IMG/VR virus record: IMGVR_UViG_3300009609_000018
Coordinates: 1-42,412 of that record
Strand: one strand, 5' to 3'
Source: a virus
Length of the DNA stretch: 42,412 nucleotides
Part shown: one piece after another, positions 3,888 through 21,356 of the stretch
How the letters are laid out: every line of letters starts with the position of its first letter
Numbering within the stretch: position 1 is the stretch's first letter
Position numbers and translations under genes: made by a program
The notes under the pieces: model-generated
Databases searched by the model: none
What the model saw: the letters and a program-made list of their open reading frames with translations, nothing else
What the model was told of the DNA's origin: nothing

Positions 3888-3914
3888 GGGGGCTATCGAC
3901 ACCGTGTAGCCCCC
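3888..3914 (+). other. Stem-loop between the scaffold and capsid genes (8-bp stem GGGGGCTA/TAGCCCCC, 11-nt loop)
   Basis: Perfect inverted repeat read from the sequence. No T-run follows, so it is more likely an RNA stability or processing element than a strong terminator. Confidence 0.35.
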
Positions 3915-3985
3915 ATCACGTGAGGCTGACCCTCGTAATGCGAAGTGAACGCACCTTCCATTAACCTCTTCTGAGGACAGCCCAA

Positions 3986-4945
3986 ATGGCATTCCCGAAC
4001 GTAAGCGATATCATCGCTACGACAATCGAATCCCGTACCCGCAAGATCGCGGATAATGTGACGAAGAACAACGCCCTACTGATGAGGCTTTCCCAGAAGG
4101 GCAAGCAGCGTACTTTTAGCGGCGGCCGACTCATCTATGAAGAGCTGAGTTTTGCCGAGAATGGCAATGCCGGTTGGTACAACGGCTATGACCTGTTGCC
4201 CGTTGCGGCGCAGGATGTGCTTTCGGCGGCACAGTTCGATATCAAGCAGGCTGCATGTCCGGTCGTGGTTTCTGGCCTGGAAATGTTGCAGAATGCCGGC
4301 CCCGAACAGATGATCGACCTGATCGGCGCACGCATCGACGTGGCTGAGTCCACAATGCGCAATCTGGTGTGTGGCGGTTTGTATAGCGACGGCACCGGCT
4401 CAGGTGGCAAGGAAATTACCGGCCTTAATGCCGCTGTTCCGTTGGACCCAACTACTGGCACGTATGGCGGCATTGACCGTGTTACTTGGACCTTTTGGCG
4501 CTCCAAGCTGGTCAACGTCACTTCGACTGCCACGATTCAAGCGAATTTTAATGCCCTATGGGCACAGCTTGTTCGCGGCGCGGATCGCCCCGACCTCATC
4601 CCTGTTGACAACGTTGTTTGGCAGGCATACGTGGCCTCGCTACAGGCGCAACAGCGGTTCAATTCGCCAGAAGTCGGCCAGCTAGGGTTCCCGTCCATTA
4701 AGTACATGGATGCCGATGTGGTACTCGATGGCGGTATCGGCGGTTTCTGCCCTGCTGGTACTGGCTTCATGCTCAATACCGATTATATCCGCTTCCGTCC
4801 GCACAGCGCGCGTCAGTTCGTACCGCTGTCCCCGAACAAGCGGTATTCGATCAATCAGGACGCCGAGGTTCAGATCATGGCATGGGCCGGAAATCTGACG
4901 ACCTGCGGTGCGCAGTTCCAAGGCCGGCTCGACGTGAATCCGTAA
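3986..4945 (+). CDS. Major capsid protein
   Basis: 319 aa, downstream of the scaffold, with a GAGGA RBS. The N-terminus (MAFPNVSDIIATTIESRTRKIADNVTKNNALLMRL) is typical of epsilon15/BPP-1-type podovirus coat proteins, as recalled. Confidence 0.8.
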   Translation: MAFPNVSDIIATTIESRTRKIADNVTKNNALLMRLSQKGKQRTFSGGRLIYEELSFAENGNAGWYNGYDLLPVAAQDVLSAAQFDIKQAACPVVVSGLEMLQNAGPEQMIDLIGARIDVAESTMRNLVCGGLYSDGTGSGGKEITGLNAAVPLDPTTGTYGGIDRVTWTFWRSKLVNVTSTATIQANFNALWAQLVRGADRPDLIPVDNVVWQAYVASLQAQQRFNSPEVGQLGFPSIKYMDADVVLDGGIGGFCPAGTGFMLNTDYIRFRPHSARQFVPLSPNKRYSINQDAEVQIMAWAGNLTTCGAQFQGRLDVNP

Positions 4946-4957
4946 GGAGAGTAGGTC

Positions 4958-5125
4958 ATGGAAACCAATCCCGACACTCTGCCGGATGATGGACCGGAAA
5001 TTACCCCTGAGGAAGAAGTACCGGCAACCCCGTCAACGTACTGCGGTCCACCTTCTGGATTGCCTCAAAGTGTGGAGTACCAATCTGGTGAAGTCCCGCT
5101 GTGCGGGAATGAGCCTCTGCCATAA
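4958..5125 (+). CDS. Small acidic/Pro-rich protein (55 aa)
   Basis: AAGGAG RBS 6-7 nt upstream of the ATG. Preferred over track ORF 4986..5273, whose product is Arg-rich and lacks an RBS. Confidence 0.45.
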   Translation: METNPDTLPDDGPEITPEEEVPATPSTYCGPPSGLPQSVEYQSGEVPLCGNEPLP

Positions 5126-5214
5126 GTTCTCCGAGCGGGCGGCTCGCGGGTACAGGTTTTCGGTTATCCTGACATTAAAACCGTCTTTATTTAGCCCACT
5201 AGGAGGACGCTCAA

Positions 5215-5817
5215 ATGCCTGCATCCAACATGGCTGGCCCGCTGGTAGTTCCGGCCAATCCCTCTGCCGGTAAGTTCGTGCTGATGAGTCCGTTTAGCGG
5301 CCCTGATGGATCGCCAAAGGACACCGATCAGACTGGCAATCATTCCACAGGCGCGTTGAATACCGGTATTGGTATCAATGCCACCCGTAGAATTAACGTA
5401 TCTACGGGTACGTCACCGTTCACAGCCCCCGGTGCCATTAAGGCTGCTGGTTTTACCGACGACTATACCCCCGGTGTGACCATGCCAAATGGCACGGCTG
5501 CAACGCTGGCGATTCTCACTGCCATTGGTGGCGGCAAGAGTGTCATCACTCCTGGCCCCGGTAATACAGGTCTAGGGGTGTCCACAGTTTCCCCATATCT
5601 CGTCCAGCCGCTTCTAGGCTTCGGTAATGGCGGCTCGCGGGATGCTGGTGCTGGCCCTGCTTTCACTGGCTTCCCGGTGAAGATGGTAACGGCGGCTGCT
5701 GGCGTTGCGGTCGGTGCGGTTATTGAGACTGGCTGGGTGAACCGTTCGGAATCGGCTTTGGTGACTACGGACTCTGTATTTGGGTCGGGTACAACGGCCT
5801 CCGCAGCGGTTACGTAA
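5215..5817 (+). CDS. Gly/Thr/Ala-rich virion protein, possibly capsid decoration or cement
   Basis: AGGAGG RBS. Sits directly after the capsid gene, and its stop abuts the next ATG (TAAATG). The function is a positional guess. Confidence 0.55.
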   Translation: MPASNMAGPLVVPANPSAGKFVLMSPFSGPDGSPKDTDQTGNHSTGALNTGIGINATRRINVSTGTSPFTAPGAIKAAGFTDDYTPGVTMPNGTAATLAILTAIGGGKSVITPGPGNTGLGVSTVSPYLVQPLLGFGNGGSRDAGAGPAFTGFPVKMVTAAAGVAVGAVIETGWVNRSESALVTTDSVFGSGTTASAAVT

Positions 5818-8800
5818 ATGTCAACGCTGAATGACAGCATTTTGACGGCCACTGGCGGGCCTACAGTAAATGATGGTCTGCTGGATTGGTTTCGTGATGG
5901 GGGGGCGGGTGCAAACTCGCCCCTTCAAGATGCAGAGCGGGAGTGGCTAATCATACAGCTACTATTCCCCGTCGTTGTGCTCGATACAAATAATGATTTG
6001 TGGATGAAGTTTCTGCCCCCTCCGGGCGCTATTAATGACCGCCAATTTGCCTACTGGTTGGCTGGTCCTCAACTTCCCACAGCCCTCCTGATTCCGATTG
6101 GTGAAACGGCCAGTGCCGTTAGTCCTGCGGATGCGTCCGTATTTATTACGGTTGCAACTGACCAATTTGTCAAAAAGCAGATCAACGGCGGCGCTCTTAT
6201 TAACCTATATGATTGGGTTATTCAGGGTGTAGCGGCTGACTTTGAATTGATGGCTTCTGGCGCTTCCGGTGACACTGGAAACCTGTCCGGATCGGCCTTT
6301 AATACATGGCTACCTCCCCCGGTGTCATGGACGTTTCTAAACTCCGACGATACACCTAATAATAAGGCTATTAGCTTTACCCTGTCTGTCCGTAGAGCTT
6401 CGGACGGTCTTTTGCTCAGTCAAGCCCCAGTCAGTTTGCAGGCGAATGTGACTGCGGCTCCGATCATCCCAACTGCCGATTTGCAGCCCGTTAGTCAGAC
6501 GGCGGCGGCGGTTGCTCCGGCTGACGCTTCCGTTGATGTTTCGATTAGTAGCGATGGCTTCGTCAAGCGACTGCTAAATGGGGCTTCGTTTGCGAACCTA
6601 TATCAATGGCTATTGACTGGTGTTAATACTGACTTTGAATTCAGGGCTTCTAACCTCACTGGTGACACTGCAAATCTCACTGGATCGCCATTTAATGTGT
6701 GGCAGCAAGCCCCTATCGGCTGGACAATTCTAAATTCTGACAATACGGCTGGCTCCAAAGCGTGTAGCTGGACGGTTGAAGTTCGTAGAGTCTCCGACTT
6801 CATCGTATTGGATACGACGACGTTTACCATTCAGGCTGATGTTACGCCACAGCCAGCGAACGCTGATTTGCAGCCGATTAGCGAAACGTCTTCTGCTCAA
6901 AGCCCCGCCAATTCTACCATTAACATTCAGGTATTGACTAATGGCACTGTTACCAAGTCGGTTAATGGTGGCGCTGCTACGGTCCTATATACGTGGATTG
7001 TTAATGGTGTAGCGGCCGATTTTGAGTTCCGGCCCTTCGGCCTTACTGGCGACTCGGGGAACCTTACTGGTTCAGCCTTTGGATCGTTCATTGCACCCCC
7101 GCTTACGTTCACATTGACGAATAATGATGATGCGGCAGGCACTAAATCTGTCGATTTCTCGCTAGACGTTCGCCGGGTTGTGGGTAGTGTGCTACTGGAT
7201 ACCACAACGGTTAGCCTAGATGCGACGGTCACGCCCCCGGCTCCGAATGCCGATTTGCAGCCTATTTCGGAGACTGCTGCAACCAACAGCCCGACGGATG
7301 CAACCGTCTACATTGAGGTAGCAGCGGATGGGTTTGTCAAGCGTTCCATTAATGGCGGCGCGCTGACTAACCTATATCAATGGCTGGTGACAGGCACTTC
7401 TACTGACTTTCAATTCCAAGGTTCTGCTGCTACTGGTAATACTGGAAACATCGTAGGTACGGCCTTCGGATCGTACTTTGCTGCGCCTGTGTCGTGGACG
7501 CTGACAAATCCCGATAATGCTACCAGTTCCAAGGTAGTCGATTTTACCCTGTCCGTGCGCCGGGTTCCGGACAACACGGTTTTGGATACGACGACGGTTC
7601 ACATGGTAGCTAATGTGACCCTGCTTCCGAATGCGGATTTGTTGCCCGTCAATCAGCAAGCTACGGCCAATAGTCCTAGTAACTCTTCTGTCACCCTCCG
7701 GGTTGAATCAACTGGTTTTGTGACTGTTTCGCTCAATGGCGGGGCGTTTACTAACCTCTACAATTATATCGTAAATGGCGTAGCGGCTGACTTTGAGATT
7801 AGAGGCTCTAATCTTACTGGCGATACTGGCAATATGTCGGGGGATGCTTTCAACGTATGGTTGCCTATTGCACCCGTAACATGGACGCTTACTAATCCTG
7901 ATGATATTGCTAGCACTAAGAACACTAGCTGGACGGTGGAGATTCGTAGGGTATTGGATCAAGTGGTATTGGATACAACTACGTTCCAAGCTACGGCTAT
8001 TATTCAGGCGGTTTCGGATGCTGAATTGTTTTTCACGGAAGCGCATTCGACGGCCGTTAGTCCAGGCAATGCGACCTCTAAGATCGAGATTGCTACGGAC
8101 GGGGATGTAAAGGTTCAGATTAATGGCGGGTTGAATGTATCCCAATATACATGGCTATTGGCTGGCCTAGCATCTGATTTTCAGTTCTTTGCTTCTACCC
8201 CTAATGGTGATGCTGGAAACGTTACCGGTTCTGCCTTTAATACATGGTTGGCCCCTCCAGTGTCATGGACACTAACGAATTCCAGTGATATACCGGGCCT
8301 CTTGGCGGCTGACTGGCAGGTGCAAGTTCGTAGGGCCTCAGATAGTGTTGTAATTGACGCTGCTACCTTTGACACTACGGCTGAAGTTACGCCCGCTGCG
8401 TTCAATCCCGCTGCTGTGCTATTCGGTGCCGGTGAACTTGGCTGCTGGTTCGATGCTTCTGACCTGTCAACCATGTGGCAGAATTCGGCGGGAACTACGC
8501 CTGTTACGGCCGTCGAACAGCCGGTAGGAAAATGGAATGACAAGTCCGGTCGTGGTGTCTCGGCTACGCAAGCTACGGCTGCATCGCGGCCTACTCTCAG
8601 CGCACGTAAGAATCATCTTACATATAGTGAGGACTTTAATCAGTCTTATTGGACAAAGACCGGATGCACTACCAACATTGCTGGACAGGAGCTATTTGAA
8701 ACCTCTGCCAATAGCGTTCACTCCTTTAGCCGTGCTGCTGTTATTGCGGCCGTTCCTAACCAAACGGCTCTATTCGGTGCAACTGCGTCTTTCCAGATAT

Positions 8801-9741
8801 TCCCAGATGGCAGAACTAAGTGCGCTGTATTGATCGGTAACAACACACTCGCTAGGTTCTATCGGGTGATGTTTGATCTTACAGGTTCCGGATCGGTAAT
8901 AGGTACACCGGAGAATGTAGGGCCGCTGGCGAATGTCTCCCACTCCATTACCAATATCGGTGGCTCTTATGTTTGCACTGTTTCGGCAGGATTTGCCGCA
9001 GAGACAGGTGGCATAGGAACTGCTGTATATGCCGTTGATGACACCCCCTCTATTACGTATACTGGTTCGGCTGGATTGACTGCACTATCTATTGAAAAGG
9101 CGCAGTTTGAGTGGGGGTATACTTCCACCCTCGCGGGGCCTGCCGGCAACCTCACTACTGGCTATCAGTCAAGTAGCGGCGCACTAAGCTATGATACTGT
9201 TGGATTCCCGCACTATCTCCGTTGTGATGGCGTCGATGATTGGATGCAGACTACGGTAATGAATTTGACGGCATCCAATGAACTCACTTCGATGGTCGGA
9301 GTATTCAAGCTAAGTGACAATTCACAGGCTGTCATCTATGAGTTCTCCAATTCAACCGTTAGCAATGCCGGTGTCTTTGGATGGGTTTGCCCGCTAACCG
9401 CTGGCCCTAATATTGTATGGCGGTCACGCGGAACCACGACGGCCGATGCTAGCCTTACGTCTGGGTTTGCTTCGCCTATTGCTATTGTGGCAACTGGTGA
9501 GTCCGACATATCGGCTCCGCTATCTAGAATCAGAGCCAATGGCCAGACGGCTCAGAATGTGGCTACACAGGGCACAGGTAACTTCGGTAATTTCGCAGCC
9601 TATTTTGCCCGTCGTGGCGGTTCCACGAACACATTTACAGGAGGGCTGGGACAGATCATAATTAGAGGCACAGCTACAACTCTTACAGACATCCAAAACA
9701 CAGAAGCGTTTATTGCAGCAAAGATGGGAGTAATACCATGA
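5818..9741 (+). CDS. 1307-aa structural protein: N-terminal ~88-aa anchor, six tandem ~129-aa domains, then a C-terminal LamG/concanavalin-like region
   Basis: Repeat register read from the translation (ADLQP... starts at aa 220, 349, 478 and 606). C-terminal motifs WFDASDLSTMWQNSAGTTPVT...GKWNDKSGRGVSATQATAASRPTL and LRCDGVDDWMQT are typical of LamG-type phage fibre and decoration proteins. Confidence 0.85.
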   Translation: MSTLNDSILTATGGPTVNDGLLDWFRDGGAGANSPLQDAEREWLIIQLLFPVVVLDTNNDLWMKFLPPPGAINDRQFAYWLAGPQLPTALLIPIGETASAVSPADASVFITVATDQFVKKQINGGALINLYDWVIQGVAADFELMASGASGDTGNLSGSAFNTWLPPPVSWTFLNSDDTPNNKAISFTLSVRRASDGLLLSQAPVSLQANVTAAPIIPTADLQPVSQTAAAVAPADASVDVSISSDGFVKRLLNGASFANLYQWLLTGVNTDFEFRASNLTGDTANLTGSPFNVWQQAPIGWTILNSDNTAGSKACSWTVEVRRVSDFIVLDTTTFTIQADVTPQPANADLQPISETSSAQSPANSTINIQVLTNGTVTKSVNGGAATVLYTWIVNGVAADFEFRPFGLTGDSGNLTGSAFGSFIAPPLTFTLTNNDDAAGTKSVDFSLDVRRVVGSVLLDTTTVSLDATVTPPAPNADLQPISETAATNSPTDATVYIEVAADGFVKRSINGGALTNLYQWLVTGTSTDFQFQGSAATGNTGNIVGTAFGSYFAAPVSWTLTNPDNATSSKVVDFTLSVRRVPDNTVLDTTTVHMVANVTLLPNADLLPVNQQATANSPSNSSVTLRVESTGFVTVSLNGGAFTNLYNYIVNGVAADFEIRGSNLTGDTGNMSGDAFNVWLPIAPVTWTLTNPDDIASTKNTSWTVEIRRVLDQVVLDTTTFQATAIIQAVSDAELFFTEAHSTAVSPGNATSKIEIATDGDVKVQINGGLNVSQYTWLLAGLASDFQFFASTPNGDAGNVTGSAFNTWLAPPVSWTLTNSSDIPGLLAADWQVQVRRASDSVVIDAATFDTTAEVTPAAFNPAAVLFGAGELGCWFDASDLSTMWQNSAGTTPVTAVEQPVGKWNDKSGRGVSATQATAASRPTLSARKNHLTYSEDFNQSYWTKTGCTTNIAGQELFETSANSVHSFSRAAVIAAVPNQTALFGATASFQIFPDGRTKCAVLIGNNTLARFYRVMFDLTGSGSVIGTPENVGPLANVSHSITNIGGSYVCTVSAGFAAETGGIGTAVYAVDDTPSITYTGSAGLTALSIEKAQFEWGYTSTLAGPAGNLTTGYQSSSGALSYDTVGFPHYLRCDGVDDWMQTTVMNLTASNELTSMVGVFKLSDNSQAVIYEFSNSTVSNAGVFGWVCPLTAGPNIVWRSRGTTTADASLTSGFASPIAIVATGESDISAPLSRIRANGQTAQNVATQGTGNFGNFAAYFARRGGSTNTFTGGLGQIIIRGTATTLTDIQNTEAFIAAKMGVIP
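6082..8406 (+). repeat. Six in-frame tandem coding repeats with a period of 384-387 nt (~129 aa)
   Basis: Unit starts at nt 6082, 6475, 6862, 7249, 7633 and 8020. The conserved skeleton is ...SPxxAxVxIxV...G.V.K..NGG....LY.W...G.A.DFE........GD.GN..GS.F..W...P..WTL.N.D.....K......V.VRR..D..VLDTTT......V. Confidence 0.9.
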
Positions 9742-9902
9742 ACATGCTGGTCACTGCACTAATGCTGGCTGGCTTGATTTCCTTAGCAGCCGCAGCCTTC
9801 AATCTCTCCATTACCCCCCGGATTAGTATGGGGTGGTTGGGAGTATCCCTTTTCGCCTTGGTCGCATTCCTGTGTCAAATGGGAATGGTAATGGTCAAGT
9901 AA
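9738..9902 (+). CDS. Small membrane protein with two predicted TM helices (54 aa), holin-like topology
   Basis: ATGA overlap with the stop of the 1307-aa gene. Sequence is MNMLVTALMLAGLISLAAAAFNL...GWLGVSLFALVAFLCQMGMVMVK. Too short for the ORF track. Confidence 0.45.
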   Translation: MNMLVTALMLAGLISLAAAAFNLSITPRISMGWLGVSLFALVAFLCQMGMVMVK

Positions 9903-9927
9903 CCCCCCGCCCCGCAAGGAGTATTTT

Positions 9928-10500
9928 ATGTCAACTGTTGCCGATTTCGATGTTGAAGATTTTGAATCCCGCGATAAGGGCAAAGAGAAGAACTATGTCC
10001 GGTTCTATATCAAGGCTAAGGAAGACACTGCAAAGTCTGCCGAAGAAGGCCGTCCGATCTATGTTGATAAGGAGTATATTGAGATTCGTGCTCCGGGTAA
10101 TCAGACTAATATCGTAGACCGCCCGGTTTCGGACAAGGATAAGCAGGACTATAGGCGCGCATATGCGATGTTCAAGTCTGGTGATGCAGAGCAGGTCATT
10201 GGAACGCCTCTTTCCGAGGTTACTTGGATCACTCGCTCGCAAGTCGAAGAACTGGCTTATTGGCGTGTTCGTACTTTGGAGCAGCTTGCCGCTGTTGGCG
10301 ACGATGTTTGCTCCCGTCATCCGGGCCTTACTACACTGAAGAACAAGGCTGTTCAATTCGTGGCAAAGTCCGAAGCAAATGCCCCGTTTATCGCACTGCA
10401 TGAAAAGAATAAGAAACTGGAAGAGGAAATGGCTGCAATGAAGCTGGCTATGGAAGAGCAAGCAGCCATCATTAAGGGCCTACAAGCCGCTAGGAAGTAG
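9928..10500 (+). CDS. Hypothetical virion-module protein with a C-terminal coiled coil
   Basis: AAGGAG RBS and a 190-aa ORF with ordinary composition. The antisense ORF 9931..10461 is rejected. Confidence 0.7.
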   Translation: MSTVADFDVEDFESRDKGKEKNYVRFYIKAKEDTAKSAEEGRPIYVDKEYIEIRAPGNQTNIVDRPVSDKDKQDYRRAYAMFKSGDAEQVIGTPLSEVTWITRSQVEELAYWRVRTLEQLAAVGDDVCSRHPGLTTLKNKAVQFVAKSEANAPFIALHEKNKKLEEEMAAMKLAMEEQAAIIKGLQAARK

Positions 10501-10511
10501 GGAGTCTGGTC

Positions 10512-11225
10512 ATGGCACAGTCCGTCCTCCAATTGGTCAACAAAGCCCTGCAAGAGATTGGCTTGCCGCAGGTGCTTACTATTGTGTCTGCCCCGGACGA
10601 TCAAACCGGATTCCAGACACTCGGCCTCTTGAATGCGCTGGGTAATCAACTTATCAAGGTACATGATTGGCAGTTCCTTGAGAAGACTCAGACGTTTACG
10701 GGGAACGGTGTGCAGACTGAATTCGACCTACCTGCCGATTACAAAAGGATAGTTAACCAGACCCAATGGAGCAGTAAGAACAAGCGGCCGATGTATGGAC
10801 CCATGACCCCGCAAGGATGGTCATGGGTCCAGTTCGGTATTGTGTCGGTAGGAGTGTACTATCGCTATCGCGTACTGCGTAACAAGTTCACTGTTTTCCC
10901 TACGCCCGCAGATCAGGAGCAACTTAACTTCTTCTATATCTCTAAGCATTGGGTATACGATCCGCTTACAGATACGTATAAGGATAATATCACGGCCGAT
11001 ACTGATGAGACTGTATTTGAAGACTATTTGATGATCGCCGGTATCAAGTTTAAGCTATGGGCCGCTAAGGGTATGGATGCGACGGAACTGAAAGATGAAT
11101 TCATGTATATGCTCAACAACGAAAAGGCTCAGAATCAGGGGGCCCCTGTTATCCAGCTAGATAAGCGTTGGGACTACCTGTATATCTCCGGGCAAAATGT
11201 GCCGGATGGGAGCTGGAATGTTTAA
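10512..11225 (+). CDS. Putative head-tail adaptor (P22 gp4-like position)
   Basis: GGGAG RBS, 237 aa, immediately precedes the large nozzle-like gene. The assignment is positional. Confidence 0.45.
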   Translation: MAQSVLQLVNKALQEIGLPQVLTIVSAPDDQTGFQTLGLLNALGNQLIKVHDWQFLEKTQTFTGNGVQTEFDLPADYKRIVNQTQWSSKNKRPMYGPMTPQGWSWVQFGIVSVGVYYRYRVLRNKFTVFPTPADQEQLNFFYISKHWVYDPLTDTYKDNITADTDETVFEDYLMIAGIKFKLWAAKGMDATELKDEFMYMLNNEKAQNQGAPVIQLDKRWDYLYISGQNVPDGSWNV

Positions 11226-12831
11226 GGCCAATGCTCAGATTCGGCAGGTATCACAGGCGCTTGCCTTGCTTGCGCCAACGGGTGGTATTAATGACCTAGA
11301 CCCGCTGGCAAAGATGGGTCCAGAGTTTATGATCGACGCCATGAACCTCTATCCCGACAATGGGTTAGTGGTAGTGCGCCCCGGATACCGTGAATATGCG
11401 ACTGGCCTTAATGGTGCCGTTAAGACCATTTTATCTTTTGCCGCACAAGACGGTACTTTTCACAAGTTCGCGGCTGTCGATGCAGGCATCTATAATATCT
11501 CCGCTGCGATACAGAATCCAGTCATCGTAACTCCCTCCACCTTTGGAGAATGGGAGTTTACTAATTTTGCCACTTCCGCAGGTCAGTTTCTTATTGCCAC
11601 AAATGGCGTAGACCCTGCCAAGCTATACAACGGTACGACGTGGATCGACTTTACAGAGGTTGCCACCCCTGCCGGTCCAGGTCAGATCAAGGGTGTGAAT
11701 CCAGCCACGTTTGACTATGTAATCTCGCATAAGGCTCGCCTATGGTTCATCCAAAAGAACACAATGACGGCGTGGTATCTCCCCGTTGACTCTGTGGGCG
11801 GTGAAGCGAAGCCATTTTATGTGGGAGGTATCTTCAATCGTGGTGGCTACCTGCGAATGATGGCACGGTGGTCTTCTGATACAGGAGAAGGGCTAGATGA
11901 TCGCCTTATTTTCTTCACGTCAACCGGGGAGATTGCTTCGTATGCTGGTAATGACCCTGCGAACGCAGCAGACTGGACACTGGATTCTATCTTCTTCGTG
12001 GCATCGCCTCTTAGCAAAAGGTCGGTGGCTTCCTATGGCGGTGACATTATGCTTCTATGCCGTCGTGGGCTGGTTCCTCTTTCATCCCTCATAACCGGGC
12101 AGGCAACCGAAGTAGTGTATTCGGGGGGTCTAACCAAGCGGATTTCAAGGACGCTTTTGCGTCTATCTTCGCTAGGCGCACCCCCCTTCCCGCCAGAAGT
12201 GCGGTTGCATGAAGACGCTGCTTGGGTGGTCATAAACATCTTCGATCCTGCGGTGGCAGGTGGACGGTTTGATGGTACGAATGCACCTATCCAACTGGTA
12301 ATGAACGTGCTTACCGGAGCATGGGGCAAGTTTAACTATCCTGTTCGCACCGTGCGCAGCATTGATTCTACTTTGTATATGGGCACGGACGATGGCCGCG
12401 TACTAGCCGTTACCCCGGATGCGTATGTTGATAATCGCTTGTTCAATGGTACTGGTGGTGTTCCTATCGAAGCCTATGGCATGGGGGCCTATACGTATCT
12501 TGAGCAGCCGACTACCAATAAGCACGCCAAGCTAATTCGCCCCGTGTTTCAAGCAGAAGTGGTGCCCTCCTTTGTCATGCGTATACTGCCAGACTTCCGG
12601 CTGGATCGCTTGATCCAAACTCCCCCGCCTTCGTTCTCGATTGGTAATGCGCGCTGGGACGTAAGTTTTTGGGACCAAGCAAATTGGGCGGGAACTGAAA
12701 ACGTTTACAGGCCATGGCGTTCCGCTAACGTACTAGGCTACGCATTTGCCTGGCAGATGCGCATATCAACGTCATCTGCACTTGGCCTATCGGACCTTGA
12801 GTGGGTATGGGAGAATGGTGGACTCGTATGA
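11218..12831 (+). CDS. Putative tail tube/nozzle protein (P22 gp10-like or tail tubular B-like position)
   Basis: 537 aa. I chose the start MFKANAQ (GGGAG RBS, 8-nt overlap ATGTTTAA) rather than the track start at 11197. The function is positional. Confidence 0.45.
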   Translation: MFKANAQIRQVSQALALLAPTGGINDLDPLAKMGPEFMIDAMNLYPDNGLVVVRPGYREYATGLNGAVKTILSFAAQDGTFHKFAAVDAGIYNISAAIQNPVIVTPSTFGEWEFTNFATSAGQFLIATNGVDPAKLYNGTTWIDFTEVATPAGPGQIKGVNPATFDYVISHKARLWFIQKNTMTAWYLPVDSVGGEAKPFYVGGIFNRGGYLRMMARWSSDTGEGLDDRLIFFTSTGEIASYAGNDPANAADWTLDSIFFVASPLSKRSVASYGGDIMLLCRRGLVPLSSLITGQATEVVYSGGLTKRISRTLLRLSSLGAPPFPPEVRLHEDAAWVVINIFDPAVAGGRFDGTNAPIQLVMNVLTGAWGKFNYPVRTVRSIDSTLYMGTDDGRVLAVTPDAYVDNRLFNGTGGVPIEAYGMGAYTYLEQPTTNKHAKLIRPVFQAEVVPSFVMRILPDFRLDRLIQTPPPSFSIGNARWDVSFWDQANWAGTENVYRPWRSANVLGYAFAWQMRISTSSALGLSDLEWVWENGGLV

Positions 12832-13307
12832 GATGGCTTAATTCAGACCCGCAATTCATGTGTCATCTGGCTAACTTGCTAGAGATAGCGCCTACTCCAA
12901 ATGCGGTGGTCATTGCAGAGTTCGATGATGTGGTGCCCATTTGTGGAGTGGTTTTCGACGGCTATAATGGCAAGTCTATCCATGCACACATTTGGATTGC
13001 ACCGGGCCGTAGACCTTCGCGTATGTGGTGGTTCGCCATCTATGATTATATGTTTCGGCAGTGTGAAGTGACGAACGTTATTGGCACTGTACCTAGTAGT
13101 AACCTTGCCGCCAAAAAGCTGGACGAGCATCTAGGTTTCAAATTGAATAGTGTGATACCGAATTATTACCCCAACGGTGACGATATGCTTCTGTATATCT
13201 GCACCGCTGAATCGGCCATAGACTGGCAACGTTTCCGGCCCGCCAGTTTCCGCTTTGAGCAGGAGCAGGATAATGGGAAGCAAAAAGAAAGCGCCGCCGC
13301 CTCCTGA
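12828..13307 (+). CDS. GNAT-like (acyl-CoA N-acyltransferase fold) protein within the virion module
   Basis: ATGA overlap with the upstream stop. The C-terminal half (NVIGTVPSSNLAAKKLDEHLGFKL...DDMLLY) resembles the GNAT alpha4-beta5 region, but no canonical R/QxxGxG/A motif is visible. Confidence 0.4.
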   Translation: MRWLNSDPQFMCHLANLLEIAPTPNAVVIAEFDDVVPICGVVFDGYNGKSIHAHIWIAPGRRPSRMWWFAIYDYMFRQCEVTNVIGTVPSSNLAAKKLDEHLGFKLNSVIPNYYPNGDDMLLYICTAESAIDWQRFRPASFRFEQEQDNGKQKESAAAS

Positions 13308-14421
13308 TTATAAGGCACTTGCCCAACAGCAGGCGGAATTGCAGAATCAAATGCTAGCGACGCAGACCGAGGCTAATCGCCCCGATCAAATCACTGCATA
13401 TGGCTCACTTAAATGGTCGCAAGACCCGACCACGGGAAGATGGACCCAAACCGAAGAGCTATCGCCTGAGGCAGCACAGGCCCTAAAAGAGTCACAGGGC
13501 CTACAGTCACAGCAAATCGGTCAGATTAGTGAATTGATGAAGCAAGGCGGGTTCCAAGGTGGACCCGCTATGCCCACGTATGATCCGACAACTGGTGAGC
13601 AGTATGCCCAGCGGTTTACTGAGTCACTTATGGGGCGGCTACGGCCGCAACAGCAGCAGGCACAGGAACAGATGCAAACTCAGCTACGGCTACAGGGTTT
13701 GCAGCCCGGTACAGAAGCCTATAATCGGGCCTATCAAAACCTGCTTACCTCGCAGGGTGATGTGAATACACAGGCTAATCTACAAGGGCTGTTGGCTGGC
13801 GGCAAGGAAGCCCGCGATATCTACCAGACTCAGCTAGGTGGTCAGCAGCAGGGTTATTCACAAGCCATGGAACAGTATTTGTTGCCATGGCAAACTGCCA
13901 GCATGACACAAGGATTGGCTAGTGGTATCCAGCGGCCTGAGTTCCAAGGATTCAGCCAAGCAGGGGCAGGCGAAGCCCCAAAGGTCATGGATGCTGCACA
14001 GCAGCAGTATGCACAGCAAATGCAGCAGTATAATGAGGCTGCACAATCCAAGCAGGGTAAGGGACAGGCTATCGGCTCCATTGCTGGCGGCGTCCTAGGT
14101 AGCGTTATTCCCGGTGCTGGCACCATGATTGGTGCCTCGCTAGGTGGTGCGGCTGGTGGTGCCCTGTTCTCTGATGCTACATTGAAGGAAGATATTGCAG
14201 TTCTTAGCGATGAAGATTGCTACAATGCTATGCTCCATATCTTCCCGCACACGTTTGCATGGCCTAATGGCAAGCGTGATACTGGCCTGATCGCACAGCA
14301 GGTAGCAGAGCATTTGCCAGACCTTATCCAGCGTGCGGAACAGGGCTTGCTGATGGTCAATTACGCTAAGTTTGCCACGCTACTACTTGGTGCTTTCCGG
14401 CATCTAGCGAAGGGGGCCTAA
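13273..14421 (+). CDS. Gln-rich coiled-coil protein with a glycine-zipper segment and a C-terminal S74-type intramolecular chaperone-like domain; candidate tail needle/plug or ejection protein
   Basis: AGGAG RBS 7 nt before the ATG at 13273 (the track ORF starts at 13255). The C-terminus from nt 14170 (SDATLKEDIAVLS...TGLIAQQVAEHLPDLI...VNYAKFATLLLGAFRHL) matches the S74 chaperone motif also seen in the tail fibre. Confidence 0.7.
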   Translation: MGSKKKAPPPPDYKALAQQQAELQNQMLATQTEANRPDQITAYGSLKWSQDPTTGRWTQTEELSPEAAQALKESQGLQSQQIGQISELMKQGGFQGGPAMPTYDPTTGEQYAQRFTESLMGRLRPQQQQAQEQMQTQLRLQGLQPGTEAYNRAYQNLLTSQGDVNTQANLQGLLAGGKEARDIYQTQLGGQQQGYSQAMEQYLLPWQTASMTQGLASGIQRPEFQGFSQAGAGEAPKVMDAAQQQYAQQMQQYNEAAQSKQGKGQAIGSIAGGVLGSVIPGAGTMIGASLGGAAGGALFSDATLKEDIAVLSDEDCYNAMLHIFPHTFAWPNGKRDTGLIAQQVAEHLPDLIQRAEQGLLMVNYAKFATLLLGAFRHLAKGA

Positions 14422-17863: not shown

Positions 17864-20809
17864 ATGCCTCGTAACGGCTCTGGTGGATACGACCTTCCGG
17901 CCGGTATCAACCCTGTAGTAACGCAGACGCTTATCACGTCTAATTGGGCAAACACGACCCTCAATGACGTGGCGGTCGCGCTTACCAATAGTATAGCACG
18001 TGATGGACAGACCCTTCCTACGGCTAACCTGCCTATGGGCGGGTTCGCTCACACAGGTGCGGGTGATCCTGCATCCCGTGATATGTATGACACCCTAGGC
18101 TACGTGCAAGATGGTAGGCATTTCCGTCTTACTAACGTGGCTGGTGTAAACCAGATCACGGCGACGCTTCCCGGTGGCGCGGTGGCGCTATCCGTGGGGC
18201 AGATTGTCCAGCTACTTCCGGCTAACAATAATACCGGTGCCGTTACCCTGAATATCAATGGCATCGGTGCGCGGCCTGTCACTACCGACCTAGGCAATCC
18301 ACTTGCCACCGGAAACCTAGTCGCCAACAGACCCTATTTGCTATCCTATACTGGCACGTCATGGGTAATGATTACTGCCGGTGGTGGTAGCTCGGGCATC
18401 GCTCAGGCCGCCATGAGCGGCTGGGACAGGCCCACGGCGAACGGCCCGTACCCTCCGATCACGGCCGTAGACGCGACGACTGTAGCCATTCCTGCGGGCA
18501 CTGGCAGAATCATCCGTCCATCGGCCCGCGATTTGTCGGGTGTGACAGAGGTTTCTTGGGCGGCCCAGAATGTGGCATTGAGCTTTGTGGCTACCTCATG
18601 GAATACCATTCTGGGTATCAATGCGCTGGGTCAAGTCGTGCAATTCACGGGCAACTTTAGCCCGGTGTGGGCACGTGAAAATATCCTGATCGGTTCCGTT
18701 GCGCATGTGAATGGTCAAATCAACGAAATCAATACCGTCCCCGCGATCTTTGGAGATATGACTTACGCCTCATACGACGTAAGTAGCCTGTTGCACAATA
18801 CGCTAATCAGTGGTGGGCGGCTGCTAGCAAATGCGGTTAGTCCGTTCCATGTGGACTTGCAGGCGGGTGCTATCTTTACGTTAGGTGGCGATGCTAACGA
18901 TGTTAACGATCCCAATAAGCGGGATTTCCCTTCTTCCTTTGACCTGAGTTTCTTCCCGGTCACAGGTAACAATACGGTAGCGGCGATTACCCAAAACGTT
19001 CCGGTGACGAACTACGACCCAAATGGGGCAGGCGCAATCGTAGCTATCCCCGGTGGCGCTACTACTACTTCCATTCACCGCATGTATCTACTGGCCGGGG
19101 AGTTCATATTCCTGTACGGTCAGAAGACCTATACGGACCTTACCACGGCGCTATCTCAGCTAGGTGTGGATGACTCTGCTACTATCTTCCCATCGAAGCT
19201 GACTAATGCCACCTTCCTGAGCTACATTGTAGCGCAGAAGAATAACCTTGATCTAAAGGACACAACTACTGCGCGCCTTCTGACTAGGGGCGGCACCAGT
19301 TTCAGCATCGGTTCCGCTAGCTCCATTTCCGAAGCCCCGATCAATGGTCTTATCTATGGCCGTAAGGATGCAGGCTGGTCGGAAGCTGTGCCCGCTCCAA
19401 AGGGGCCATCGTCTACGCTACGTCAAATCTTCTTCAATACTAACCTGCTTCCCCGCTGGTCACTGACGGTAAATGATACGCCAGAGGGCGGCGGTAATAC
19501 CGGCTCTAGTCTTGAGATTCGTCGGTATGATGATGCTGGCGTCTTGATAAATTCCCCGGTTGCCATTAATCGCACCACAGGAGAGGTTTTTACAACTGCT
19601 TCTCTTACGGTTCAAGGTGCCGCTAGCCACATCACTGCGGGGGGTGACGTAAGGGCGAATAGCAACTTTGCATCTACCAATACTTCTGTAGTGCTGGCAA
19701 CGTCGGCGGCCGGTAATGTATTCCTGCGGCCTAGTGGTGCTGCATCTTCGGTCGGGCAAACTACCATTGCTTCCACTGGCCTGATGAACGTTGGCGGTAA
19801 TGTCAATGCTGCTGGCCTTATTGCTAGGGCTTCCGGTGGTGGCGAGGGTGGCGAACTACAGCTTCTCGGCGACGGTGGTGCGAGTACCGCTATCATTGAC
19901 AACGTGGGGCCGCAAACCCGGTTCTTCGGTGGTGCCGCTGCACCGATGACTTTCGACCGGGAAACTGGTGCCTTGACTGTGCCTCTGTCAATCACAGCCG
20001 GGCAAGGGGTCATTGCGAACCAGAATTTCGGTTCTTCCACTAATGTCGCTGTGCTGGGTCCGGTTGCTGCTGTTGCGGGCACGGTTCTACTGCGGCCTAA
20101 TGGCGTTAATGTCTCTACAAATGAGGTAACGATATCCAATAACGGTAATGTTACTGCACCGGGCAGCTTGTTCGGTTTCTCTATTGTCTCCCAACAAGAC
20201 TTTACGGCTACTGGTGTTAACTGTGTATTAGCTGCGCAAGGCGGCGGCATATTCCTGCGGCCAAATGGTGCTGGTAGTGCGGTAGGTCAAGCCATTCTTG
20301 GTGCTGCTGGTAATTTCTCTTGCGCTGACGTTACTGCTAGTAACAATGTCAATGCCACGGGACGGGTTACTTCTGGCACTCACTTCAATGGCCTAGGAGT
20401 CACTACCGTTCTGTCTGCAAATGGCGGTGGCGGCGGCTCCATCCTGTTCCGGCCGCAAGGTGCCGACAATGGCACCAATCAAGCCACGCTCGATGCTGCT
20501 GGTAATTTTAGCTCTGTAAATCAGACTGCAACGTCCGACCAAATTCTTAAAGAAAATATTTCTCCGAAAGCCCCGCGTAGAAATCTGGCTGATCTAATCG
20601 CCCTGTATACCTACGTTTGGAAGAGCGATGGCCGTGCTGGCATGGGGCAAATTGCGCAACAGGTTCGGGAGCACGCGCCGGAGTATGTCCACGAAGGAAC
20701 TGATGGTATCCTGAGTATTGATAAGGCCAGTCTGGCAATGGAGTGCATACTAGGTCTAGCGGAGCGGGTAAAAGAACTAGAGGATAAAGTCAATGACCTT
20801 GCCGGCTAG
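17864..20809 (+). CDS. Tail fibre/spike with a C-terminal peptidase S74 intramolecular chaperone domain
   Basis: AGGAGG RBS. N-terminus is YDLPAGINPVVTQTLITSNWANTTLNDVAVALTNSIARDG. There are four (F/L)(L/F)RPxG repeat units at nt ~19722, 20089, 20253 and 20443. The S74 motif SDQILKENISP...GQIAQQVREHAPEYV...SIDKASL starts at nt 20534. Confidence 0.9.
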   Translation: MPRNGSGGYDLPAGINPVVTQTLITSNWANTTLNDVAVALTNSIARDGQTLPTANLPMGGFAHTGAGDPASRDMYDTLGYVQDGRHFRLTNVAGVNQITATLPGGAVALSVGQIVQLLPANNNTGAVTLNINGIGARPVTTDLGNPLATGNLVANRPYLLSYTGTSWVMITAGGGSSGIAQAAMSGWDRPTANGPYPPITAVDATTVAIPAGTGRIIRPSARDLSGVTEVSWAAQNVALSFVATSWNTILGINALGQVVQFTGNFSPVWARENILIGSVAHVNGQINEINTVPAIFGDMTYASYDVSSLLHNTLISGGRLLANAVSPFHVDLQAGAIFTLGGDANDVNDPNKRDFPSSFDLSFFPVTGNNTVAAITQNVPVTNYDPNGAGAIVAIPGGATTTSIHRMYLLAGEFIFLYGQKTYTDLTTALSQLGVDDSATIFPSKLTNATFLSYIVAQKNNLDLKDTTTARLLTRGGTSFSIGSASSISEAPINGLIYGRKDAGWSEAVPAPKGPSSTLRQIFFNTNLLPRWSLTVNDTPEGGGNTGSSLEIRRYDDAGVLINSPVAINRTTGEVFTTASLTVQGAASHITAGGDVRANSNFASTNTSVVLATSAAGNVFLRPSGAASSVGQTTIASTGLMNVGGNVNAAGLIARASGGGEGGELQLLGDGGASTAIIDNVGPQTRFFGGAAAPMTFDRETGALTVPLSITAGQGVIANQNFGSSTNVAVLGPVAAVAGTVLLRPNGVNVSTNEVTISNNGNVTAPGSLFGFSIVSQQDFTATGVNCVLAAQGGGIFLRPNGAGSAVGQAILGAAGNFSCADVTASNNVNATGRVTSGTHFNGLGVTTVLSANGGGGGSILFRPQGADNGTNQATLDAAGNFSSVNQTATSDQILKENISPKAPRRNLADLIALYTYVWKSDGRAGMGQIAQQVREHAPEYVHEGTDGILSIDKASLAMECILGLAERVKELEDKVNDLAG

Positions 20810-21356
20810 CCCCCCTATTACCAAGCTACAAATCTATACGGAATTCGGGGTTCCGTTAAACACGCCCTTTACCCAACTGGTGAGGGGCGGAATCTACGTG
20901 CCCAATACACCGGCTAATGCGGCCATTCCTACGACCCCGCCACTCAATATGTTGCAGTTCCTAGGGGCCTCTGCGCAGCCACCGATTGACTTCCAGAATG
21001 CGACTTGTAGTGCTGGGGCGCTAGCTCCAAACGATGCTACGGCAACGCTTAATATCAATGCTGGTGGCACGGTTACACGCGGCATTAATAATGGTGCGCC
21101 ACAGACCCTTTATACGTGGCTGCTATCGGGGGCCGCAAGTGCATGGGAAGTGGTGGCTACTTTGCAGTCGGGCAATACCAACCTAGGCACATACGGAACG
21201 CCCCTGAATCTGGGGTCCGGTCGGTCGTGGGGATGCTTCTTCGGCGGCAACTCAGGATCGCAGTCCGCTACAGTGCTGCTACAGTTCCGGCCAGCCGGGG
21301 GCGGGGCCTTCGTGGATTCCTGCACGTTCAGCCTAGACGCCACGGTCGAGAGCTAA
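20793..21356 (+). CDS. 187-aa protein whose C-terminal ~108 aa is a seventh, stand-alone copy of the repeat domain in the 1307-aa protein
   Basis: GAGGA RBS and a 17-nt overlap with the fibre gene. ATLNINAGGTVTRGINNGAPQTLYTWLLSGAASAWEV...FSLDATV aligns by eye with the repeat skeleton. Confidence 0.75.
   Translation: MTLPASPPITKLQIYTEFGVPLNTPFTQLVRGGIYVPNTPANAAIPTTPPLNMLQFLGASAQPPIDFQNATCSAGALAPNDATATLNINAGGTVTRGINNGAPQTLYTWLLSGAASAWEVVATLQSGNTNLGTYGTPLNLGSGRSWGCFFGGNSGSQSATVLLQFRPAGGGAFVDSCTFSLDATVES

Follow-up and report, generated by a model that had tools for sequence, protein, structure and literature searches.

A 1307-residue modular protein encoded between the capsid and tail genes of a podovirus-like genome is a probable glycan-binding fibre of the virion surface

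Positions 1 to 42,412 of the IMG/VR virus record IMGVR_UViG_3300009609_000018 (hereafter the window, to which all coordinates refer) represent a podovirus-like genome similar in type to Mx8 and BUCT555. Between its capsid and tail genes it carries an open reading frame (ORF) for a 1307-aa protein composed of a short N-terminal anchor, six copies of one beta-sandwich domain and a C-terminal pair of concanavalin A (ConA)-like domains. Orthologues of this protein (P0001-P0004; P-numbers denote compared proteins and L-numbers compared loci) occupy the equivalent slot in L006, L007 and L022. An earlier note on this DNA, made from the sequence alone, had placed the gene between the capsid and tail genes and away from the tail-fibre locus at 17864-20809, and the gene positions confirm this. 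Searches of PDB sequences with the whole protein were empty or meaningless, and in PHROGs the whole protein had only a weak match, to phrog_26106 (function unknown). The gene, its modules and a second gene that contains the repeat domain are as follows.

5818..9741, + strand: modular fibre gene (ATG start, 1307 aa); anchor, then six beta-sandwich units, then a ConA-like pair
5818..6081, + strand: N-terminal anchor (aa 1-88), with five [T/S]-hydrophobic-[N/Q]-D-x4-aromatic-hydrophobic motifs
6082..6474, + strand: repeat unit 1 (aa 89-219)
6475..6861, + strand: repeat unit 2 (aa 220-348), the one modelled
6862..7248, + strand: repeat unit 3 (aa 349-477)
7249..7632, + strand: repeat unit 4 (aa 478-605)
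7633..8019, + strand: repeat unit 5 (aa 606-734)
8020..8406, + strand: repeat unit 6 (aa 735-863), the most diverged, within the mosaic patch
8064..9354, + strand: mosaic patch, about 87% identical to L022; 1.3 kb over repeat 6 and the GTA_spike_fiber domain
8407..8601, + strand: N-terminal segment of the lectin head (aa 864-928), highly conserved, GE.G.W.D.SD...AGTTPVTAVEQPVG..DKSGRG; pLDDT >90
8602..9114, + strand: GTA_spike_fiber domain (aa 929-1099), the first ConA-like sandwich
9169..9732, + strand: LamG/Laminin_G_3-like sandwich and C-terminal helix (aa 1118-1305)
20793..21356, + strand: 187-aa protein with a seventh copy of the repeat domain at aa 66-186; overlaps the end of the tail-fibre gene 17864-20809

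The six-fold tandem array described in the earlier note is real: the six units are in frame, and all 15 unit-to-unit pairs are significant by BLASTP (E 1e-31 to 3e-47, 96-135 bits, versus a maximum of 21.9 bits in 100 shuffles). The proposed starts at nt 6082, 6475, 6862, 7249, 7633 and 8020 correspond to aa 89, 220, 349, 478, 606 and 735. The proposed period of 384-387 nt holds for the later units but not for the first, which spans 393 nt (131 aa). Each unit has 128-131 aa and adjoins the next without a long linker; pairwise identities in the MAFFT alignment are 39-52%. Tandem Repeats Finder detected no long-period DNA array, and only the protein sequence reveals the repeat, indicating that the array is old. 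The units can also be paired by position with those of the orthologues: the first window unit (W1) is 66% identical to unit 1 of P0002/P0003, W2 and W3 match their counterparts at 65% and 72%, and W4 pairs with a P0004 unit at 84%. In an alignment of 21 repeat units from four proteins (A1), only G70 and R104 are invariant, with approximately 16 further columns conserved at 90% or more; what had been called a strict skeleton is thus present as a set of conserved columns but is looser than described.

Structure prediction of one repeat and of the C-terminus had been proposed as a check. For the repeat, the AlphaFold2 (AF2) model of unit 2, built from alignment A1, is a nine-strand beta-sandwich with a pLDDT of 96.6. 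A single unit has no Pfam match at E <= 1 and no NCBIfam or PHROGs match; the Big_2, I-set, FN3, PKD and He_PIG profiles do not match it, and the repeat profile retrieved nothing from the PDB sequences at E <= 10. Foldseek likewise found nothing in the PDB at E <= 1e-3 (E >= 1.7e-3), the best TMq being 0.48, to PapD/ASH/pilin-type folds. The profile searches agree with the suggestion that the repeat does not belong to a standard Ig-like or fibronectin family. Good fold matches come only from BFVD, where the ten best, all models of uncharacterised phage proteins, reach a TMq of 0.58-0.72. The BFVD match A0A292GIJ2 presumably belongs to phage XacN1, judging from its accession series, and the weak BFVD matches include the Hoc proteins of T2 and CF1 (TM 0.32-0.36).

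The repeat domain is widespread. Its profile, searched against 1.84 billion representatives, matched 743 cluster representatives at E <= 1e-3, a few of which are false positives, and 50 at E <= 1e-10. Most family members are single-domain proteins of 125-195 aa, with the repeat domain at the C-terminus, and they are mostly small proteins encoded beside tail fibres. Larger carriers include a tail-collar fibre (P0128) and a Phage-tail_3 (J-like) protein (P0172), in which the domain lies at the extreme C-terminus; in our reading of their sequences, P0253 and P0265 are probably J-like carriers as well. In P0127 (1533 aa), five copies of the repeat domain alternate with Big_7 Ig domains. The C-terminus of this protein looks RHS-toxin-like to us, and its architecture suggests that the repeat domain may not be confined to phage virions. 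Two apparent giant arrays proved to be false positives produced by summed weak scores: P0137 (3587 aa, 25 matched stretches) is an FN3-type array by our reading, and P0126 consists of Y_Y_Y repeats according to Pfam.

The window itself contains a seventh copy of the domain, in the 187-aa protein encoded at the end of the tail-fibre gene. Its residues 66-186 match A1 with a probability of 98% in hhalign (E 1.7e-13) and with E 2e-14 in hmmsearch, and the protein is 50% identical to P0125, the best small match, whose gene in L003 overlaps the end of the gene for a Peptidase_S74 fibre of 1121 aa. Other small family members are also encoded at the end of tail modules. The 60-aa N-terminal module of the 187-aa protein (MTLPASPPIT..LQIYTEFG..) is 77% identical in the relative L015, where it is followed by a different C-terminal domain that the repeat profile does not match. 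A tblastn search of 50,697 phage records with the 187-aa protein and the small member P0131 returned no match; cultured phages therefore give no annotation for the repeat domain. From the tail-protein carriers, the small proteins of the tail modules and the replacement in L015, we conclude that virion proteins carry the repeat domain as an exchangeable module in a distal, surface-exposed position.

The short N-terminal anchor recognised in the earlier note is present, but it had not been seen that this module belongs to a family of stand-alone proteins with five motifs. An alignment of the anchor (A3) contains five invariant aspartates, D6, D19, D38, D60 and D74, one in each motif, and its homologues P0273-P0285 are stand-alone proteins of 76-88 aa. 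The anchor has no Pfam, PHROGs or NCBIfam match; PDB matches to enterovirus VP4 at E 0.2-1 were judged to be chance. The family extends to 38 cultured Vibrio phages, including K300, VP2, VP5 and phiVC8. In Vibrio phage K300, gp9 (106 aa; hhalign 98%) is encoded two positions downstream of the capsid gene and is preceded by a Big_2 protein. In p10 of phiVC8/VP5 (282 aa; L026 3495-4343), the anchor is split after motif 2 by an insert of approximately 190 aa without a Pfam match, indicating that the anchor tolerates internal cargo as well as C-terminal extension. An 80-aa ORF at the equivalent slot of BUCT555 was considered as a further homologue; it is unrelated and has a hydrophobic N-terminal stretch. 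PhiXacm4-11, described in a cryo-EM preprint, was considered as a structural relative and set aside.

Within one lineage, in which the capsid protein is 75-100% identical, the slot of the 1307-aa gene holds a graded series of proteins. In L016 (capsid protein 75% identical), it is occupied by the 84-aa, anchor-only P0277; in L027 (capsid protein 89% identical), by P0006, a 521-aa protein consisting of the anchor and the head with zero repeats; and the series continues to the repeat-bearing proteins of the window, L006, L007 and L022. In L007 and L006 the slot encodes an anchor, four or six repeats, the head and one extra C-terminal repeat; P0002 and P0003 carry a repeat copy beyond the lectin head, at the tip. 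The copy number across homologous phages, which it had been suggested to compare, therefore varies from 0 to 6. The position of the anchor gene is conserved, two positions after the major capsid gene in L016, L027, L006, L007, L022 and K300.

The C-terminal 445 aa form the lectin head. The LamG/concanavalin-like C-terminus recognised earlier is supported by the homologues, for many of which, P0006 among them, PF13385 (Laminin_G_3) is recorded, and by the AF2 model (pLDDT 89.8), which consists of two ConA-like sandwiches in tandem. In Foldseek, this model is closest to the laminin LG4-5 pair (E 7e-9), to CBM40 modules that bind sialic acid and to BoNT Hc, with a TMt of 0.59 for the single LG5 domain and 0.54-0.60 for CBM40, and the structural protein gp45 of phage E217 is matched as well. 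What had been taken for a separate middle region is instead a second ConA/LamG-like domain that already has a name: aa 929-1099 match the NCBIfam model NF048003 (GTA_spike_fiber, 'phage head spike fiber') with 39.4 bits against a cutoff of 36. It is preceded by aa 864-928, whose columns are near-invariant in an alignment of 66 head-family sequences (A2). The A2 profile, searched against the PDB, matches chain 6tb9_F3, the 'Head spike fiber Rcc01080' of the Rhodobacter capsulatus gene transfer agent (RcGTA), with E 9e-33, and three phage tail/baseplate proteins more weakly. In RcGTA, one Rcc01080 chain sits on a pentamer of the base protein Rcc01079 at each capsid penton, held by residues 2-10 (IALGLGLGL), while the remainder of the chain, which is flexible, provides the attachment to the capsule (PMC7296036). 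A tagged RcGTA fibre bound far better to capsulated cells than to a capsule-less mutant (PMC10218006).

Homologues of the head form more than 750 protein clusters and are mostly stand-alone proteins of about 450 aa. In all three contexts examined (L008, L010 and L012, which are unrelated sipho- and podo-type contigs), the stand-alone head gene lies between capsid and connector genes. Of 65 head homologues, 10 open with an RcGTA-like (hydrophobic-Gly)n motif (for example MLGLGLS or MSFGFGFGF), versus 10 of 827 background windows, and one of the proteins with such a start, P0041, has a spike-base gene immediately upstream (NF048002 E 5e-19; PDB 6tb9_E3 E 9e-5). These starts and the base gene of P0041 indicate that genuine phage head spike fibres are among the members of the head family. 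The head region also has a weak 'virion structural protein' PHROG match, and the LamG region has a tblastn match in Pseudomonas phage vB_PsaM_M1. The only long match in cultured phages is ORF384 of the Xanthomonas jumbo phage XacN1 (L020), a 2823-aa protein annotated as a glycerophosphoryl diester phosphodiesterase, which contains the ConA-like pair (36% identical over 450 aa).

A protein of approximately 135 aa is encoded just 3' of the stand-alone head gene in L008 (11445-11852) and L012 (11317-11730), and a related 97-aa version is found in L010. The L008 and L012 copies are nearly identical, suggesting a mobile two-gene cassette of fibre and partner, as L008 is of sipho-type and L012 of podo-type.

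Comparison with the sister genome L022, which encodes P0001, points to the part of the gene that has been exchanged. Over 8.4 kb (nt 3900-12300) the two genomes are approximately 99-100% identical outside one patch, and 165 of their 214 differences fall within nt 8064-9354. Repeat units 1-5 are 100% conserved. Across repeat 6, the N-terminal segment of the head and the first ConA domain, 87 codon changes are synonymous and 37 are non-synonymous. The abundance of silent changes indicates that recombination has exchanged repeat 6 and the spike-fibre domain. Such a local replacement is the pattern that would typically be expected of a receptor-binding determinant.

The neighbouring genes that bear on the position of this locus are listed below.

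29-1750: portal
3986-4945: major capsid gene, product 84% identical to that of Stenotrophomonas phage BUCT555 and about 60% to those of Mx8 and Mx9
5215..5817, + strand: 200-aa Gly/Ala/Thr-rich protein; its stop codon ends at 5817, directly abutting the fibre ATG at 5818
9738..9902, + strand: 54-aa ORF with two hydrophobic stretches; overlaps the fibre stop codon (ATGA)
after the 54-aa ORF and before the adaptor gene: p50-like protein, 190 aa
10512-11225: SU10-type adaptor
13255-14421, + strand: Peptidase_S74 fibre gene
between 13255-14421 and 17864-20809: SLT-domain protein
17864-20809, + strand: tail fibre, 981 aa, Peptidase_S74

The gene thus lies inside the structural operon, abutting its upstream neighbour and overlapping the downstream one, and consensus scans for a promoter or terminator of its own gave nothing above shuffled background. 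The 200-aa neighbour is retained in BUCT555 and in all sister contigs, L006, L007, L016 and L027 among them, and has no Pfam, PHROGs, NCBIfam or PDB relative; it may be a capsid-surface partner of the fibre. Mx8 p49, found at the same position, is unrelated in sequence. The 54-aa ORF is probably a two-transmembrane protein by our reading, and a counterpart is also located 3' of the fibre gene in L007, L022 and L027. The slot equivalent to the fibre gene holds a lysis cassette in BUCT555 and nothing in Mx8 and is therefore variable. The fibre genes at 13255-14421 and 17864-20809 each end in a Peptidase_S74 intramolecular chaperone domain. The 1307-aa protein, unlike these two ORFs, has no match to Peptidase_S74, collar or fibre models, and neither trimerisation features nor an intramolecular chaperone were seen in it; nor was a signal-peptide-like stretch seen at its N-terminus by eye. 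With these two fibres, the phage has at least three candidate adhesins.

We consider it probable (roughly 0.6) that the 1307-aa protein is a monomeric, bead-on-a-string glycan adhesin of the virion surface, and most probably a capsid (head) fibre. Alongside the observed architecture, fold models, homologies, synteny, modular series and recombination patch, we infer its capsid attachment, its monomeric state, the class of its ligand and its role in adsorption. The anchor (aa 1-88) would fix the fibre to the particle, and the six beta-sandwich units would form a semi-rigid stalk that probably adds weak multivalent binding of its own. The ConA/LamG-like head would bind a host surface polysaccharide, and this reversible binding would concentrate virions on the cell envelope or capsule, where the two Peptidase_S74 tail fibres could then commit the particle. 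Attachment to the capsid is favoured because the head family is linked to the penton system of RcGTA, because of the position of the gene, and because the anchor-only proteins suit a decoration protein better than a docking module for tail fibres. The carbohydrate-binding capsid fibre proposed in the earlier note is accordingly strengthened on the side of the head, by the GTA_spike_fiber match and the RcGTA homology; the capsid attachment of this type of anchor remains the inferred part.

Several observations weigh against this interpretation. The stand-alone repeat domain goes with tails and not heads, and is therefore no pointer to the capsid. On the side of the anchor, PDB searches gave no relative for it or for the adaptor, the 200-aa neighbour or the capsid protein, and the proteomics of phiVC8, limited to four gel bands, contain nothing on the anchor homologue (those of phiRIO-1 are likewise silent). 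For the head, Pfam found no family, LamG included, on aa 863-1307 at E <= 1. Finally, two parts of the RcGTA attachment are missing: the (Ile/Leu-Gly)n 'five-point star' peptide is absent from the window N-terminus, MSTLNDSILTATGG, and no spike-base gene (Rcc01079 family, NF048002) is present in the window, L006, L007 or L016, as judged by a phmmer search of all ORFs with the L010 base protein, which matched in L010 and L011 only.

The alternative that survives best concerns the stalk. The six repeats could be an inert spacer that sets the reach of the lectin head without any binding of its own, as would fit contiguous units that lack long linkers, sister phages that have anywhere between 0 and 6 copies with the head retained, and the complete conservation of units 1-5 against L022 where the head patch varies. 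We regard this as possible but somewhat unlikely, since the same domain is terminal in J-like proteins and is the sole globular part of the small proteins beside tail fibres, since P0002 and P0003 place an extra copy past the head at the very tip, and since repeat 6 falls within the variable patch.

A second alternative retains the glycan adhesin and moves its point of attachment. The protein could be a neck or tail-proximal side fibre of the whisker or collar type, with the anchor on the portal, adaptor or nozzle. The gene is located just upstream of those for the p50-like protein and the SU10 adaptor, the stand-alone head homologue of L010 comes after two adaptor-like genes, the other homes of the repeat domain are tail proteins, and two or more sets of appendages are common in podoviruses. 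However, anchor-only proteins at the slot would be odd for a module that docks fibres, and five anchor motifs do not fit the 6- or 12-fold symmetry of a tail. In addition, the head family is tied to the capsid pentons of RcGTA by its N-terminal motif and its spike-base neighbour, and neither trimerisation features nor an intramolecular chaperone were seen, in contrast to the two Peptidase_S74 fibres. We think a neck location unlikely.

The ConA-like fold is also found in glycoside hydrolases and lyases, and the C-terminal pair could thus be an enzyme (a glycanase, lyase or depolymerase) rather than a lectin, particularly as its only long match in cultured phages lies in the XacN1 protein annotated as a phosphodiesterase. 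This is very improbable: the best fold matches (laminin LG, CBM40, BoNT Hc and E217 gp45) are non-catalytic, the XacN1 annotation covers a much larger multidomain protein, and Rcc01080, which is the nearest relative to have been characterised, acts by binding and not by cleavage. Least credible of all is a non-virion moron-type gene, secreted or related to superinfection, in a permissive slot; the variability of that slot (a lysis cassette in BUCT555, nothing in Mx8) and the small membrane protein encoded after the gene would suit it, but the gene has no promoter or terminator of its own above shuffles, abuts one structural gene and overlaps the next ORF, shows no signal-peptide-like stretch by eye, and has all of its homologies to virion proteins.

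Returning to the capsid fibre as the preferred reading, a more detailed and tentative version of it concerns the number of motifs in the anchor. The anchor might be a single-chain adaptor of five-fold pseudo-repeat, in which each Asp motif contacts one subunit of a five-fold capsid vertex, either a penton of the capsid protein or a pentamer of the 200-aa protein; it would then serve as a display scaffold for cargo, and the repeat would represent a new glycan-binding fold. We think this combination unlikely as a whole, and the pentavalent fit of the five motifs to the vertex is speculation. If it were true, the anchor would solve the 1:5 symmetry mismatch in a manner analogous, though unrelated, to the 'five-point star' of RcGTA. 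Cargo could be placed at the C-terminus of the scaffold, as in the window, or between motifs 2 and 3, as in phiVC8 p10. The repeat fold would then be common to head fibres, J-type tail tips and bacterial RHS-type toxins.

The lectin head was already known: NCBIfam has a name for it, and RcGTA provides a characterised example. The new elements are the way in which the modules are combined, the unassigned repeat domain with its family, the family of five-motif anchors and the graded series within one lineage. Head fibres and decoration adhesins affect how phages find their hosts in capsules, biofilms and mucus, and few have been characterised. This locus joins a barely studied lectin head to a small anchor and to a widespread beta-sandwich domain without a family or a solved structure. 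The graded series amounts to a natural experiment in building a long adhesin by accretion of modules, and the recombination patch marks the part most likely to set its specificity. Because the anchor occurs in cultured Vibrio phages (K300, VP2, VP5 and phiVC8), its location in the virion is directly testable, and if it sits on the capsid it could offer a display scaffold for phage engineering.

Among known systems, the spike fibre of RcGTA (Rcc01080, also named GhsB, on its base Rcc01079) is the closest, as the two proteins have a homologous ConA-like spike-fibre domain in common. An RcGTA-type (hydrophobic-Gly)n N-terminus is retained in many phage head homologues, and P0041 has the base gene too. 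The window protein differs in size and in attachment: Rcc01080 has 325 aa, whereas the window protein is four times longer and adds six copies of an unrelated beta-sandwich and a LamG domain, and the 10-residue star motif is replaced by the 88-aa five-motif anchor in a genome without the spike-base gene.

Two further systems resemble the overall design. Hoc of T4 and pb10 of T5 are monomeric capsid decoration proteins with a capsid-binding domain and Ig-like domains, and a role in weak adhesion has been proposed for them. Like the window protein, for which the capsid binding is predicted, they combine a small capsid-binding module with a string of beta-sandwiches that projects from the shell. 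There is no sequence homology between them (the PDB profile searches were empty) and the similarity in fold is marginal (TM 0.32-0.36); moreover, Hoc and pb10 lack a lectin head, and the window repeat matches none of the Big_2, I-set and FN3 profiles. The head fibre of phi29, gp8.5, is a dispensable, trimeric, helical protein that projects from the capsid and is encoded right after the capsid gene. The window protein showed no such trimeric helical features and no sequence relationship to gp8.5.

The nearest parallels for the anchor are gp9 of K300 and p10 of phiVC8/VP5, which have the same five-motif anchor and are encoded, as in the window, two genes after the capsid gene. Unlike the window protein, they have neither repeats nor a spike-fibre domain, and the cargo of phiVC8 p10 is inserted between motifs 2 and 3, whereas that of the window protein is appended to the anchor.

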